Source: Zootoca vivipara (taxonomy: Eukaryota). From it: a DNA stretch of 64,000 nucleotides. Within the stretch, counting starts at the first letter, position 1; each line of letters starts with the position of its first letter. Where the stretch lies: assembly GCF_963506605.1 (NCBI RefSeq), contig NC_083277.1:9238001-9302000 (forward strand). The letters are read 5' to 3'. Under the pieces are notes generated by a model. It searched no databases. It was not told where the DNA came from and saw only the letters and a program-made list of their open reading frames with translations. Made by a program: the position numbers and the translations under genes. Of this stretch, positions 17,574-54,602 are shown piece after piece.

Positions 17574-18583
17574 GAGGATGCTGGGAAAGGGGAAATGAAG
17601 GTGAACCAGGAGGAGCGTCTACAAAAATAGAAGACCTAGACGTGGATGTTAGCACCAGTACTCAAGATGAAGCAACGAGGCACCAAGGCAGAAAAATGCC
17701 CACCAGAGATAAGCGCGGGAATCCCTCCAATGACAGCAAAGATGGGGAGGCCCACAAAACCCCAGCCCATCTAGATGTGCAGGAGGAAAAGAGAAGGAAC
17801 AAGTGCCCTGTGTGCGGGAAAATGTTTTGTTCTAAATCACGCCTTAAAGTACATCAGAGAATCCACACCGAGAAGAGGCCCTATCAGTGCTTTGAGTGCG
17901 GGAAGAGTTTTAGGCAGAGCGGGCATCTCTCTCAACATCAGAGGATGCACACGGGAGAAAAACGGTACAAGTGCTTGGAGTGTGGGAAGAGCTTCAGCCA
18001 GAGCACCTACTTTATCCTGCACAAAATAACCCACACGGGAGAGAAGCCGTTCACGTGCCTGGAGTGCGGCAAGAGCTTCAGTCACAGCAGGCGGCTCACC
18101 ATACATCGCACGATCCACACAGGGGAAAGGCCGTACAAGTGCAAGGAGTGCGGGCAGAGCTTCAGCCAGAGCACGCACCTTACATCTCACCAGAGAATCC
18201 ACACCGGGGAGAAGCCGTACAAATGCCAGGAGTGCGGGAAATGCTTCAATCAGAGCACGCACCTCACTTTGCACCGGAGGATCCACACCGGGGAGAAACC
18301 TTACCAGTGTTTGGAGTGTGGGAAGTCCTTCAGCCAGAGGCCGCACCTTACTTTGCACCAGAGAATCCACACGGAGGAGAAGATGTACAAATGCTCAGAG
18401 TGCGGAAAGAGCTTCCATCGAAGCGACCACCTGACTTCGCATCTGAGAGTGCACACAGGGGAGAAGCCGTACCAGTGCTCACAGTGTGGGAAGAGCTTTA
18501 GCCGAAGTGCAATCCTGACTAAGCATCAGATAACCCACAAAGGCAGAGAAACTCCCGTGGGAACAGAGGAAGGCTCCGCCTGA
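17574..18583 (+). CDS. Gene B zinc-finger exon, 9 C2H2 fingers (~371 aa protein from ATG 11062)
   Basis: Polypyrimidine tract and caatag|GA acceptor; 9 canonical fingers in ORF 17534-18583. Confidence 0.92.
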
Positions 18584-24217: not shown

Positions 24218-25155
24218 TTAAAAATCAGTTGGCGTGGGGGGGGGGGGCTGTGGGATCTGCTCGGAATGAATCCGCTTATGCCTATTCAGGCTAGAGGCTC
24301 CCGTGAAACCTTTGCCACAGTCAGAGCATTCGTATGGTTTCTCTCCTGTGTGGATTCTCTGGTGCGTCACCAGCTTAGGCCTCCGGCTGAAGCCTTTCCC
24401 GCAAACCGAGCACAGGAACGGCTTCTCTCCAGTGTGGGCTCTCTCGTGGACGCGGAGGTGCGACCTCCGGCTGAAGCCTTTCCCGCACTCGGGGCATTTA
24501 TGGGGCCTCTCTCCTGTGTGGGTTCTCCTGTGCAAAATCAGGTTCGACTGCTGGCTGAAGCTCTTCCCGCACTCTAAGCAGGTATAAGGCCTCTCCCCTG
24601 TGTGGGTCCGGTGGTGCTTAATAAGGTTGGCTCTTTGGGCGAAACTCTTCCCACACTCTGAGCAGATGTAGGGCCTCTCGTCGCTGTGGGTCCTGCGGTG
24701 CCTGCTGAGGCTTGAGCAGTCGCTGAAGCTGGTCCCGCAGTCCGGGCATTTGTACGGTTTCTCCCCCGTGTGTATTCTCTGATGACTGACAAGGTCGGCT
24801 TTCCGGCTGAACCTCTTCCCACAATCCGAGCATTCGTAAGGCTTCTCTTCCAAGTGCATTCTCCAATCTTCACCATGGTCACTTCTGCAAAGCTGCCCAC
24901 ACTCAGTGCAAGAGATCCGTCCCTCACCTTTGAAGATTCTCTGGTGGTTAGTTGCTCCATTGAATTGTTTGCAACAGCCTTGAGGACAATGAACTGAGCT
25001 TTCATTCTCGGGTCCACTTCCCATGCGACTCTCGGAGGCTTCCCAAAAATCAGGATGGGGGGGAATGTGCTGGTCGCAGCTCCCTGACAACATCCAAAAT
25101 GGCTGCACGTCTCCAGAAACTTCTGTATGGGTCTTCTCCTTCCTCAAATTACTTT
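24218..25155 (-). CDS. Gene C zinc-finger exon: 7 intact fingers and 1 degenerate finger (model 29365-28628, 26932-26806, 25155-24218; ~600 aa)
   Basis: C2H2 array in ORF 24218-25225; acceptor ttctag|AA in phase 1. Confidence 0.9.
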
Positions 25156-37141: not shown

Positions 37142-38673
37142 GTTGTGCTTCCATGACTGAGAGTGAGGAGATTTCTTTACACCTCGAGCTCTCCGGACCC
37201 GGAGCCTTACCTGACAGAACCAAAGAGAGCATTTCCACATCTCATGTGCAGGAAGAAGCATCTGTAGATCTCGCAGGTAACCCCATGGATCAGAGGAGGA
37301 GTGTATCCCAAGAGGGACTCTCGGCAGATGTCGGTGAATCGGAAAATGTGCAGGCACTTGGGAAGGCTGGCAGACGCAAGCTGCGCATCGGGGAAAGTGC
37401 AGAGCCTGTCTCCCATCGCCTTAGACGTCAAAGAATCTACAAAGCAGAGAAAACCCGCAGTTGCACGCACTGCGGGAAGCACTTTGGCTGGAGAGTGAAC
37501 CTATTGGGAGAGAAAACCCAGGCAAGAGTGACATGCTCAAGCTGCGGGGAGCTGATGAGTCAGAGCACGCAGCTCCCAGTGACCAGGAAAATGCGTAAGA
37601 GGGAGAAAGCGCATCAATGCACTGCCTGCAAGCAGGTCTTTGCGGGGAGCTCAGAACTGGCTGTGCATAAGAAAGTCCACAAAGCAGAAAAGCCGTACAA
37701 GTGCCTGGATTGCGAGAAGCGTTTTTGCTCCAAGGCAAACATGCTCAGGCACCACCAAATCCATACCGGACAGAAACCGCATCAGTGCTTAGTTTGCGGG
37801 AACACCTTCCGGCAGCAGGAGCAGCTGATTGCGCACGAGAGAACACACACAGGCGAGACACCCTTCCACTGTGTGGTGTGCGGGAAAGACTTCAACAGGA
37901 AGTCGGTCTTCCTGACACATCAGAGAATCCACACGGGCGAGAGGCCATACAAATGCTCCTTCTGCAACAAGCGGTTCATACGCAGGGCCTACCATGCTAT
38001 CCACGAGAGAATCCACGCCCGGGAGAAGCGGTACAAGTGCTCCGAATGCGGGCAGAGCTTTAACTGGAATTCGGAGTTCATCGAGCACTTGAGGACCCAC
38101 ACGGGAGGGAAGCCCTACAAGTGCCTAGGCTGCGAGAAGCGTTTTGGCTGGCACTCGGACCTTATCAGACACCAGAGAATCCACACGGGCGAACGGCCCT
38201 ACAAGTGCGCCCACTGCCGGAGGGGCTTCGTCCAGAGGGCGCAGCTCCTCTTGCACGAGAGGACCCACACCGGGGAGAGACCCTACAAGTGCTCCTACTG
38301 TGGGAAAAGCTTCAGCCGAAGCTCGGTCCTCATCAGGCACCTCCTACTGCACACCGGGGAGAAGCCATACAACTGCCTGGACTGCGGGAAGAGCTTCTGC
38401 GAGAGGGCCCAGCTCGTTTCCCACGAGGTGACGCACGCCGAGGAGAAGCCCTACAAGTGCGCGGACTGCGGGAAAAGCTTCAGCTGGAAGTCGGCCTTCA
38501 CTCGGCACCGAAGGATCCACACGGGAGAGAAACCCCACAAGTGTCCCGATTGTGGGAAGAGCTTCATTCGAACCACCCACCTTGCCACCCACCTAAGAAC
38601 CCACGGGCGGGAGACAGACAGTGATGCTTTAATCGGGGAGGACATTTTAAATGAAGGTGGTGGCTTAGTGTAG
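37142..38673 (+). CDS. Gene D zinc-finger exon: 12 intact and 2 degenerate fingers (~517 aa protein)
   Basis: C2H2 array in ORF 37024-38673; acceptor gtcgtag|GT. Confidence 0.92.
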
Positions 38674-45715: not shown

Positions 45716-47124
45716 TCACATCTTAGCCTCACTTCCGTCCTCTCCTTCTCCTTCTCCTTCTCCCACCTCTAGGTAGGCCTCTCCGGAGGCTTGTGTGAGG
45801 TCGGCCATCAGGCCCAGGTTGACGCACTCGGGGCATTTCTCCGGGCTCTCGGCGGCCGATGAGAAGATCTTCCCGCAGTCAGCGCATATGAAAGAGTTCA
45901 CGCCCAGGTGGCAGCGCTGGTGTCTGATGAGGGCCGCCTTGGCCTTGAAGCAGCTCCCGCACTCAGGGCAGACGTAGGGCTTCTCGCTGGTGTGCGTCCG
46001 CTCGTGGGCGATGAGCTGGGAGCTCTCACGGAAACACTTCCCGCAGCCGAGGCACATGTAGGGCTTCTCGCCGGTGTGGGAGCGCTCGTGCGCCACCAGG
46101 CTGGAGCGCTGGATGAAGCCCTTGCCGCACTGCAGGCAGATGTAGGGCTTCTCCCCGGTGTGGGTCCGCTCGTGCTTGCTGAGGCTGGAGCGCACGCTGA
46201 AGCTCTTCTCGCAGTAGAGGCACTGGTAGGGCTTCTCGCCGGTGTGCGTCCGCTCGTGGGCGATGAGCTCCGAGGTCCAGTTGAAGCCCTTGCCGCACTC
46301 CAGGCACTTGTGGGGCTTCTCGCCCGTGTGGGTCCGGATGTGGGCCATGAGGTGCGAGTTCTGGCTGAAGCTCTTCCCGCACTCGGAGCAGGTGTAGGGC
46401 TTCTCTCCGGTGTGGATGCTCTGGTGGCGGATGAGGTCGGCGCTCAGGCTGAAGCCCTTGCCGCACTCCAGGCACTTGTAGGGCTTCTCCCCCCGATGGC
46501 TCTTCTCGTGCAGGACCAGCGTCGCCTTCTGGCTGAAGCTCTTCCCGCACTCGAGGCAGGTGTACGGCTTCTCCCCGGTGTGGCTGCGCTCGTGGATGAT
46601 GAGGCTGGAGCGCTGGTTGTAGCTCTTCTCGCACAGGAGGCACTTGTAGGGCTTCTCCCCAGTGTGGGTCCGCTCGTGCAGCTGCAGGTGGGAGCTCTGG
46701 CTGAAGCGCTTGTCGCAGTGGGAGCACTTGAAGGGCTTCTCCCCCGTGTGCGTCCGCCCGTGCGTGTTCAGCGTCGAGCGCTTGCCGAAGCTCTTCCCGC
46801 ACTCGTTGCACTTGTAGGGCTTCTCGGCCGGGGGCGGCTTCTCGGCGCCCGGGCTCGCCACCCCAAAGCCCTTCGAGACCTCCGGGCCTTTCTTCTGCAG
46901 GAAGCTCTGCTGCACGGCGAACTCGCTGAAGTCGAAGAAGCCCCTGCCGAAAGGGATGGAAATTGGTCCCCGGCTGTCCAGAGAGTGGCCCTCGGATGCT
47001 CCGGCCTGGCCTTCCCCCCGGGGGAAGCTGACCTCGTCTCCCCCCCACATCATCCGGTTCAGCTGCAGCCGCTCCGAGCTCCCCAGAGAAGGCTCCCCTT
47101 CCTTGCTGTGGCCTAACCAGCCGG
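45716..47124 (-). CDS. Gene E zinc-finger exon: 11 C2H2 fingers plus a terminal CxxC-x13-CxxC
   Basis: ORF 45716-47053 extends in frame to the acceptor ttcttgcag|CC (phase 1). Confidence 0.92.
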
Positions 47125-47367
47125 CTGCAAGAACGAGAGTGTCAAGACAGGAAGAGAATTCATCAAAAGGAGCAGCAGAAGAAGATTTGGCTAAGCAAAG
47201 GTTGATATTATGCAGGCACCATTTGGAAGCAAGGTTCTAGTCCTCATGGGTTGTATTTCAGACCCACTGAAATTAACTAAAGCGGCTAAGTATTAGGTCC
47301 ACTCATTTCAGCAGATCTACTCCAGCTGCAAAGATAGAACTGAAATCAAGCCGGCAACTTACATTAA

Positions 47368-51635: not shown

Positions 51636-52271
51636 CAGTGGTTCCCAACAGGTGGTCCGGGGACCCCCAGGGGTCCGCGAGCTATGCCAGAGGGGTCCGC
51701 AAGATGCTATTAGAATAAAAAATATATTAAATATATTTCGTATGATAACAGATTTTTTTGTTTTGGCCGCTTCCTGCATGAGCAGAGTCTAGCGCAAAAC
51801 TAGAATTAGATAGAGGCAGTAGTTTTGCTGTATGCCGTTAGGTGGCGCTTTACAAACACTACTGTTTTGCAAAGAGGCAGCGCGCGCATTCTACTAACGC
51901 TCACCTCCCCAAGATGCTTTGCGCGCGTCGGCTTCATTTGTACGCTACTGCGCAGGTACCCTGTCTTCTCCATTCCCCTCCCTGGCACGCGCTGCCTCTT
52001 TGCAAAACAGTAGTGTTTGTAAACAAAGCGTTTTTCGCGGAAGCTACAGTTCGTGGTTAAAAATGGACCGTTGGTTAAAAAGTGGTTCGTTAAAACGACA
52101 AAGGCCTACAGATGAAGAGGAAGAACTGTAAAAAACGTATAAATATAAAATATAAAAAGATTCTTAATTTGGCTCTCACTTTTTAATTTTAGGATTAGGA
52201 ATTAATGGGGGTCCTTGTCACAATAGCGGCTCGATGAGGGGTCTTCGAGAAAATTTTGTTGGGAACCCCTG
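51636..52271. mobile_element. hAT non-autonomous element
   Basis: CAG.GGTTCCCAACA TIRs; 8 bp TSD CCCTAGAC. Confidence 0.9.
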
Positions 52272-52395
52272 CCCTAGACAAACTACTTTAAAATTGCTGA
52301 TGGTCTCGGAATTTTTCCTCCTTTATTTCCAGGAAAATATCTCTGACTTTTTTTCCAAGAAAAGTTAGCTACAACTCTAAAGAAAAACCACCCCT

Positions 52396-54446
52396 GGCTT
52401 CCGGTTGACCACGCCATCTTGCTCAGACGGGGGTCCGCACAGCGGAGCGGACCTCGGCGCTTCAGAGGTGGAGGGAATCGTTCCAGCGAAACGAAACCTC
52501 CTTAAAAGCCCCAAATCGAGCTTTTTGGGGACAGATTTTGCCTGGCGGCGCCAAAAGCAGGCTCTCTCCTCCCCGGATCGGCTTTGTTTAAGCCCCCGAG
52601 AGCGAGGAGGTGAACCGCGGCGGACAGGCTGACATTGCTGCTCTGAGAGTGCGAAGCTGCGAGTCTGGGAAGTGGAGGTGGCCAATTCTTCAAAGAACAC
52701 TCAGCAAATGAATAGACTGTGAGTAATTTGGATTCTTTGGAATGTAAATTAAGGCAACAATTTGGACCTGGGAGAGAGGGGAAAAGAGGAAGCCACCCCC
52801 CCCCCACGGTAACATAAGAGACAGTAAACAGAAACCCGAAGCCGTAAACAGAAGATTTTAACTTAAAAGGATTCCTCAAAGGCATCAAAGAGAATCTCCC
52901 CTAAATGCAGGGTAAAAGGGGAGAGAGACTGTTGTGATTGCCCTGCAGAATGAAGTTAAGACTAAGAAAGACCTTTCTTTTTCTCGGGAGCCGGCAGCCC
53001 AGAAAACCCAGTGAGCTGACCAGGATTTATAGTTAAATTTTATTTCTATCTTTATCTCTGGACTTTTTGGAAATTCTTTTTTGGTTTATATGCTTTTGAA
53101 ATGTGAGTTCGAACTTTATTTTTAAGAATGCAGCCAGCTTGTTAAAATGGAGTCGAGAAAATAGACTGCGATCATATTCCACCCCATGTGACAAGTTTTG
53201 ACCTTGACAGGACTGAACTATGTCAACAAAAAGGTACCCGCCTGAGTTTCAGCGGACTGTTTTGACCTTAATGTGGGAAGCAAGAATAGAACTATGTCAA
53301 GAGGAGACACAACGGCTAGTGTTACAGCAACAATTCCAGATTGTGATGACAGAATATGATTTCCTAGAAGATGAAGCTTTTGAAACTGAGGAGGATGAAT
53401 GTGGGAATGACAATGATGAGGACTGTGATGATTTAACACAGGATGAAGCCCATCACGAAAAAAATGATGATTTTACTCTACAAAAAGTTGGATGGAGTGC
53501 CTCCCCTTCGAGGGGGGCACGACTGGACTTACTGGAACTCCAGAATGACCACAGGGAAGAAGGAAAAATTAAGCAGAGAAGAGAAGAAGCTCAGGGGTCT
53601 GATATGGAGGCCTGGATGGCAAAAGACTGCAAACAGGGGGTGGGGTGAAGGGAAAGTGAAGTGGTGATTGTAAGGATGGGTTAATAGGACTATAACTGGA
53701 CTGCTGACTATGGAACTTGCTGGATTGGTGGGGTGGAGCCGGTACTCGGGGGGTGTAAGGTTAGTTTGGGAATAGTTATAGGTTTAAAAAGTGAATTGAT
53801 TCTGGAAAAAGGTGAAAATATGGAGGCCTATAGAGGGGTAAAAATTAGGCACGGGAAGAAAAAATGGGAGTTTGATTTCTCAGTGATTGGACAATAGGCG
53901 AAAATGATAATAGTTTAAAAGTGGTACAAGATATAAAGGTGTATGTTATAAAATATGAACTATGAAACTGTTGAAGATGATAAATAAGGGAGGAAAACCG
54001 GGGAAGGGTGGGAGGGTGGGGAAGCCCACAAAATATGGTTTAACAATTATGAATTTAACAATTATGATGAATTTTTATTTTTTTTTGTCTTTTTTCCTTT
54101 TTGTCTTTTTTTTTTCTTCTTCTCTTTTTTCTCTTTTTCTCTTTTTGCATTTTCTTTTTTTTTGGTATGACAATAGATGGTTGGATGGATGAACTCCTGC
54201 GTACTGCCCTGGTTCACTGGAGCTCCCTGGTGGCAGGGGGGGGCTTGGGGGGCAGGGGAGGGGGAGGAGGACAGAAACCCAATCATAAAATGGACCACTT
54301 CTGACTGATCACCTGCGTGGGATACTTCTGTGGCAGGGGAGGACCCATGGAGGGGGGTGGGAAGAAGGTGGAAAAGGTGTTTATGTATGTACCATCTTTT
54401 GTAATTTGTAAAAATCAATAAAAATTATGTTTAAAAAAAAAAATAA
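52396..54446 (+). mobile_element. Non-autonomous L1-type retroelement, apparently full length
   Basis: 18 bp TSD TAAAGAAAAACCACCCCT at 52378-52395 and 54447-54464; CpG-rich 5' end; G-rich tract; AATAAA and poly(A) tail. Confidence 0.85.
53220..53648 (+). CDS. Orphan acidic 142 aa ORF inside the L1-type element
   Basis: ATG-initiated ORF in the element's sense orientation; no domain recognised. Confidence 0.35.
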   Translation: MSTKRYPPEFQRTVLTLMWEARIELCQEETQRLVLQQQFQIVMTEYDFLEDEAFETEEDECGNDNDEDCDDLTQDEAHHEKNDDFTLQKVGWSASPSRGARLDLLELQNDHREEGKIKQRREEAQGSDMEAWMAKDCKQGVG

Positions 54447-54479
54447 TAAAGAAAAACCACCCCTCCGGCTGATCAGTAC

Positions 54480-54602
54480 CTCATTGCTTTTTCCACATTC
54501 CTCTTTCGTAGGATCCTCGATCATCAGTTCGTCACTGCTGCTTTCTTCTTTAACCTTCTCGATGTCTAATAGATCGCCAAGACTCTCCTGCAATTTCTCA
54601 TG
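54480..54602 (-). CDS. Gene E putative exon 3 (HEKLQESLGDLLDIEKVKEESSS...)
   Basis: ccattttcag|CAT...GAG|gtactg; 123 bp, phase 0-0. Confidence 0.6.

Follow-up and report, generated by a model that had tools for sequence, protein, structure and literature searches.

The analyses reveal that the element at positions 52396-54446 of the window (the whole 64,000-nt stretch of Zootoca vivipara contig NC_083277.1 that was analyzed) is a young member of a superfamily of 1.9-2.3 kb elements that is itself large and old. In the reading we favor, to which we assign a probability of roughly 70%, these are multi-subfamily retroposons lacking a reverse transcriptase (RT) and an endonuclease. They are likely copied in trans by L1 ORF2p and carry a selected ORF of their own; the encoded protein probably serves as an adaptor into the L1 particle. 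The initial annotation had proposed a recent, L1-mobilized, non-autonomous insertion. This is borne out by top copies that are 98-99% identical, have L1-type heads and are flanked by their own target-site duplications (TSDs). The depth of the family goes beyond that account, and the 5' UTR intron and the 3' twin hairpin are new features, absent from it.

The studied copy lies on the plus strand between exact 18-bp direct repeats (52378-52395 and 54447-54464), as originally described. The first T of the repeat may be tail-derived, leaving a 17-bp TSD; with this assignment the bottom-strand nick falls at CTTT/AG, the L1-endonuclease-like site proposed earlier. The element starts at 52396 with GGCTTCCGG, followed by CGCCATCTTG. 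The YY1-like motif annotated at the 5' start is present, but in the orientation opposite to the ATGGCG of the published 5' consensus for lizard clade-1 L1 (PMC5381506). The CpG-rich head (52396-52718), homologous to the heads of one L1 clade and swapped between subfamilies, is likely an internal Pol II promoter plus first exon. Its first 324 nt have 58% GC and a CpG o/e of 0.85, compared with 40-45% GC and 0.28-0.40 elsewhere, in keeping with the leader of about 300 bp noted before. At the end of the head sits a putative donor-like GT(A/G)AGT (52719-52724), conserved at +291 to +330 in 15/15 full-headed subfamily representatives. A 200-nt 5' UTR GT-AG intron (53011-53210), recognized by its exact loss in one copy, has its acceptor 9 nt upstream of the ATG of the main ORF. 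The coordinates and length of this ORF (53220-53648, 142 aa) are reproduced here; its product combines a long N-terminal helix, an acidic disordered middle and a GVG-stop, and belongs to no known family. This frame is the longest in the element, which therefore has no RT or endonuclease frame, consistent with the absence of such remnants in the earlier reading. Farther downstream lies a conserved, G-rich twin-hairpin RNA domain (54173-54375; GUGGCA loops at 54230-54235 and 54330-54335), which other subfamilies often carry in duplicate. The annotated AATAAA and poly(A) occupy 54417-54446 (signal at 54417-54422, tail at 54433-54446), and the last 35-50 nt resemble an L1 3' end.

The insertion is antisense to a 123-nt host exon (54480-54602, minus strand), whose GT donor at 54479 is 15 nt from the TSD, close to the 16 bp or so first estimated. 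This exon is probably part of a C2H2 zinc-finger gene with a finger exon at 45716-47236, the linkage being our own reading of the locus. C2H2 zinc-finger arrays at 17855-18503, 24469-24701, 38013-38566 and 45955-46830 identify the window as a zinc-finger gene cluster. Read on its minus strand, 52396-54446 presents a T-rich, acceptor-like stretch right after the host donor and three poly(A)-signal-like hexamers; these sequence motifs might interfere with the splicing of host transcripts or with the formation of their 3' ends. An inverted repeat at 51849-52023 (39-nt arms, 97% complementary, 97 nt apart) is MITE-like.

A DNA search of the lizard's own genome (1.44 Gb, 48 contigs) returns 1536 candidates; the best 40 were scored, and all are near full length with 98-100% identity. 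Among the 30 fetched copies, 28 have a 15-20 bp TSD of their own, located at pyrimidine/purine-rich sites, so the genome-wide search suggested at the outset finds many copies that share their ends but differ in their TSDs. One of the remaining two has 7 bp only, and the other a spurious repeat match. Between TSD and head, 12 of the 30 copies have 1-4 extra bases, mostly purine, which presumably come in part from cap copying. Exact-motif counts give 150 for the studied-type head and 265 for an older in-frame insertion. The ORF-start motif occurs in 577 + 8 = 585 copies, setting the size of the studied subgroup (copies of the same type as the studied one) at 585 or more. TSDs are also found at 26 of the 30 loci that were selected through an internal motif (one doubtful, 10 bp), with clear 5' truncation in only 2 of the 26. 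Two copies have unusual surroundings. The first 1065 nt of L167 (G000:C2:4666544) are 100% identical to the studied copy and are then broken by a 2.75-kb LINE fragment, which is in frame with the small ORF and creates a 967-aa fusion frame. L165 (G000:C1:12728372), a young copy, is nested in opposite orientation within an older family member.

The family extends well beyond the studied subgroup. Diverged RNA reads lead to subfamilies with 82-88% and about 75% DNA identity. A distant group (64 matches) consists of TSD-flanked elements of 1.9-2.3 kb, with ORFs of 133-152 aa that share only 24-32% identity with the studied ORF. Common to the superfamily is a layout of head, ATG 0.75-0.85 kb in, MST..F..VL, QQ, acidic middle and GVG-stop. 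Over the ORF tree, the types of head are shuffled, and strong branches force at least four changes. The studied stretch also occurs in sequencing runs under four organism labels (no RNA run is among the matches listed), and contigs from the two most distant labels align with head, 5' UTR and ORF pieces. The literature searched lists no description of the element family, and an existing entry in Repbase or Dfam is possible. A SINE is rejected by the L1-like head, the selected ORF and the absence from the element of any Rfam match at gathering level (tRNA/7SL/5S Pol III head).

The ORF is intact in 30/30 top copies, 23/30 motif-picked copies and 25/50 distant loci, and is stop-free in 149 of the 150 best protein matches in the genome. 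For the distant group, eight disjoint pairs yield a pooled ORF dN/dS of 0.58 (p 4e-7), with values below 1 in 8/8 pairs (0.39-0.95, two of them at 0.91-0.95). The other five frames of the same pairs range from 0.78 to 1.39 (one at p 0.017), and 12/12 non-coding control frames fall at 0.91-1.22. In this group, the dN/dS check proposed with the initial annotation separates the ORF from its controls. On the studied-subgroup tree (52 of 57 intact rows used), dN/dS is 0.45-0.54 for internal and 0.71-0.87 for terminal branches; as 2/12 non-coding control frames reach 0.52 and 0.57, this test cannot decide the matter by itself. Of the gaps, 31/64 in the ORF have a length divisible by three, versus 21/123 in the UTR (p 1e-5), a comparison biased by the choice of intact ORFs. 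Neutral-frame simulations are still open in 10/1000 cases at 0.2 changes per site and in none at 0.5. The constraint is real but loose (dN/dS about 0.5-0.6). The suggestion that the element possibly has its own protein is thereby strengthened: the ORF (133-162 aa) is open across subfamilies and under purifying selection, with dN/dS 0.58.

These data leave little room for the view that the element is a processed pseudogene or a neutral deletion derivative and that nothing but the youth of its copies has kept the ORF open. The 98-99% identity of the top copies and the divergence of the ORF DNA, which in the studied subgroup is as fast as that of the flanks, do fit such an origin. The selection and indel tests speak against it, however, as do the L1-type head and the frame itself, which is open with matching start and stop positions across lineages up to dS 0.65. 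No parent gene was found in protein searches of the genome, in which the best candidates only were scored. We regard this explanation as extremely improbable. Its two specific forms, raised at the outset as possible refutations, are themselves refuted: a single-copy processed pseudogene with an intron-containing parent by the 585 copies and by the fetched own-genome protein matches, all of which are 2-kb elements, and a simple deletion derivative with an unmaintained ORF by the retention of the ORF across copies and subfamilies.

The first three codons of the ORF are invariant, silent sites included, which hints at constraint on the RNA. In-frame length changes of 3-66 nt are tolerated. Along with the weak constraint and the remodelled middle, these properties would suit an ORF of nearly free amino-acid sequence that serves only by being translated, loading ribosomes or stabilizing the RNA and bringing it near newly made ORF2p. 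We consider this unlikely, because the controls are clean and dN/dS falls clearly under 1, because F, V, L, QQ and GVG persist despite synonymous codon changes, and because the models predict a helical N-terminus for either deep group.

Structure models of two proteins, covering both deep groups, consist of an N-terminal helix of about 50 residues (pLDDT 85-96) and an acidic disordered remainder. They speak against reading the N-terminus as an IS3-like helix-turn-helix, which is therefore rejected. The studied protein has a pI of 4.3 (4.2-5.3 across representatives), and the last 30 residues hold 4-11 K/R. No RRM, CTD or RNA-binding domain is found in the acidic protein. Searches of Pfam, of a word index (protein and alignment), of 1.84 billion representatives and of PDB folds identify no relatives, and the Atlas search with the studied protein gives no match; the ORF that resembled nothing recognizable at first sight thus matches nothing in any protein library searched. 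Pfam misses true lizard ORF1p too, and Transposase_22, which matched neither the genome nor any control, is uninformative. There is no significant match to 36 ORF1p of the same genome (best domain E about 0.004, composition-biased), and the comparison with ORF1p that had been recommended, run profile-profile, returns a probability of 0.1%. This profile test is low in power, since the studied protein barely scores against its own distant relatives: only 5.3 bits against the profile of the distant group, a value equaled or exceeded by 70/3000 shuffles. Such a score indicates that the middle has been remodelled and that little sequence is shared. In content, the protein is not an ORF1p.

The ORF could nevertheless descend from one, as a coiled-coil start that was fused to the acidic tail when an L1 lost internal sequence, in the manner of a heavily degraded HAL1. 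The small ORF occupies the position of ORF1 behind an L1-type 5' UTR and acceptor, the ORF1p of this genome begin with a coiled coil and carry an acidic tail, and the limited power of the profile test would allow such a relationship to be missed. Nonetheless, the results against the 36 ORF1p, the missing RRM and CTD, and the absence of the 3' hairpin domain from 40 full-length L1 loci make this origin possible but doubtful. It is compatible with our preferred explanation of an adaptor-encoding L1 passenger.

The link to autonomous L1 was assessed with 40 full-length-scale loci from the same genome, many with intact ORF1 and ORF2 (ORF2 about 1250 aa). These L1s start with G(G)ACTTCCGG, carry the published 5' signature of lizard clade-1 L1 (PMC5381506), and resemble the element in TSD lengths and in their last 35-50 nt. 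The nhmmer profile of the element 5' UTR matches the first 340-406 nt of 4/40 loci (E 3e-15 to 2e-5), all four in one clade. The UTR comparison called for earlier therefore yields a homologous head and similar 3' ends. The small ORF and the 3' hairpin domain are in none of the 40 loci, and no autonomous parent is present among 11 fetched loci that have the head but no listed ORF match. The description of the element as a 'half-L1'-like parasite holds in that it is non-autonomous with an L1-derived head. It does not hold in the strict sense of HAL1, because HAL1 encodes ORF1p and the studied protein is without RRM, CTD or detectable ORF1p similarity.

Nine ATGs precede the ORF, and the intron (53011-53210) contains five of them. 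One copy (L163/L184; G000:C8:66766619, minus) lacks exactly this segment, from GT to AG, and retains the complete head and an intact ORF, flanked by a 17-bp TSD of its own. Its junction has one G; a deletion via the local CAG microhomology would leave two, so the loss does not match that mechanism. Short spacing is seen in one of 86 copies with a listed head and a listed ORF, and the intron is kept in 584 of 585 motif-bearing copies (spliced copy, 1/585); the other seven matches in the junction search are point variants. This single reinserted copy demonstrates that the 5' UTR intron can be spliced, and its removal would be expected to favor translation. The genome search gives 0 matches for copies spliced from the head-end donor (the first predicted intron). 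The distant group also has a pyrimidine tract upstream of the ATG. Among the autonomous L1s, the 5' UTRs of L069, L075, L199, L202, L205, L206 and L208 place a pyrimidine tract and AG 4-9 nt upstream of the ORF1 ATG, and in several of these one-clade L1s a donor-like motif occurs between +272 and +320. The sequences suggest a 5' UTR intron in lizard L1 of one clade and, given the AG and pyrimidine tract upstream of ORF1 in this related clade, the splice layout of the element is probably inherited.

RNA reads from two raw runs (about 6% of each) were mapped to 52100-54080. Reads across the element are biased to one strand and come mostly from diverged copies, with 35/493 and 84/1610 at least 99% alike. 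Neither a splice joint nor a 5' start pile-up is seen in these portions of the two runs within this span. The identical 5' ends and L1-head homology point to an internal Pol II promoter in the head, as first annotated, but a pile-up of RNA starts at the 5' end does not accompany them. Separately, L112 (G000:C2:6131756, minus) is an older copy and contains a premature stop. About 470 reads of one run cover its head; these extend upstream of the element and are therefore probably part of a host transcript.

The 200-nt 3' block is present in 19/20 representatives, nine of which have it twice, and folds into two hairpins (z -5.2). Double changes occur at 21/38 consensus pairs, a number reached by 0/500 shuffles and by no slid control, with the structure derived from the same alignment in which it was scored. 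GUGGCA lies in a hairpin loop in 49/55 cases versus 366/1100 when shuffled. No Rfam match to the domain is found in the window or in 11 loci. Ribozyme, H/ACA, SRP-Alu and CTCF identities of the domain are rejected: HDV-like ribozyme, H/ACA RNA and SRP Alu domain give no covariance-model match in the window and the 11 loci, and CTCF or other readings are without Rfam support or inconsistent by eye across the alignment.

The pairing of a small protein with a structured RNA recalls Rev. By this analogy, protein made from spliced RNA would bind the 3' twin hairpin and export or protect the intron-containing template. A 5' intron, a small helical protein, a repeated structured 3' element and an unspliced template suit this layout, as do the 4-11 K/R near the C-terminus. 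The protein has no arginine-rich motif, however, an NES-like pattern is found in only 8/20 representatives, and related autonomous L1s have acceptor-like sites before ORF1 without the protein or hairpins. We judge a Rev-like role to be quite improbable. A broader proposal is rather unlikely as well: that the family would form a third class of non-autonomous LINEs, L1 parasites in which both a protein other than ORF1p and an RNA element cognate to it would have evolved. Like a complex retrovirus, it would use spliced mRNA for protein and unspliced RNA as genome, and the protein would bind the GUGGCA hairpins and either bring the RNA to the ORF2p of L1 or export it from the nucleus.

Returning to the L1-passenger explanation, the cycle would begin with transcription from the L1-derived CpG head, as its homology and the identical 5' ends suggest. 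Unspliced RNA is the usual template, as the 584/585 copies that keep the intron show. The 5' UTR intron can also be spliced out, as one copy demonstrates; this removes 5/9 upstream ATGs, to the presumed benefit of translation. Target-primed reverse transcription at pyrimidine/purine-rich sites, probably by the L1 enzyme, would then leave the observed 15-20 bp TSDs and A tail. We hold these four steps, together with the selected ORF, to be highly probable. The fifth step is tentative, at somewhat less than even odds: the N-terminal helix may assemble together with the coiled coil of ORF1p, or else bind ORF2p, while the twin hairpin would serve as an RNA handle, an adaptor role modeled on that proposed for the HAL1 and HeT-A proteins.

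Among known systems, HAL1 of mammals is likewise non-autonomous, with an L1-derived 5' UTR, one ORF, a poly(A) end, TSDs and long-lived subfamilies (PMC5753468, PMC5786205). In contrast to HAL1, the family encodes not ORF1p but an acidic protein of 133-162 aa without RRM/CTD or detectable ORF1p similarity, and it adds a 3' twin-hairpin domain not found in the sampled L1s of the genome. HeT-A (Jockey clade) and Ag-Sponge (CR1 clade) are also protein-coding non-autonomous LINEs, but they belong to other clades, and their protein corresponds to ORF1p/Gag; the HAL1, HeT-A and Ag-Sponge proteins are proposed to multimerize with proteins of the autonomous partner (PMC5786205). Lizard clade-1 L1 (PMC5381506) shares the GACTTCCGGT-like 5' start, a long 5' UTR with a CpG head, an AT-rich 3' end and head replacement during evolution, in line with the head homology to four L1 loci of the genome. 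The element differs from it in having no ORF1p/ORF2p, a length of 2 kb versus 6.3-6.8 kb and a reversed YY1-like motif; the words 'splice' and 'intron' do not occur in that article. In human L1 SpIREs, too, a spliced 5' UTR transcript is, rarely, reintegrated as a genomic copy, and the splicing there is characterized as a dead end with no benefit for translation (PMC5860796). Here, by contrast, the acceptor lies 9 nt from the ATG and most of the upstream ATGs fall within the intron, an arrangement from which a benefit may be supposed.

The published non-autonomous LINEs that code for a protein encode ORF1p, and reports of bipartite LINEs without an ORF are confined to RTE, Ingi, Vingi and R2 (PMC5786205). 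In the family described here, a probable L1 parasite, a small protein other than ORF1p has persisted across many turnovers of subfamilies, as have an intron and a structured RNA element. The family also points to an intron in the 5' UTR as part of the layout of one lizard L1 clade. Finally, it bears on the standing question of how a passenger RNA overcomes the preference of L1 for its own RNA, and because the parts of the element are compact and separable, this contest between passenger RNA and L1 preference becomes directly testable.
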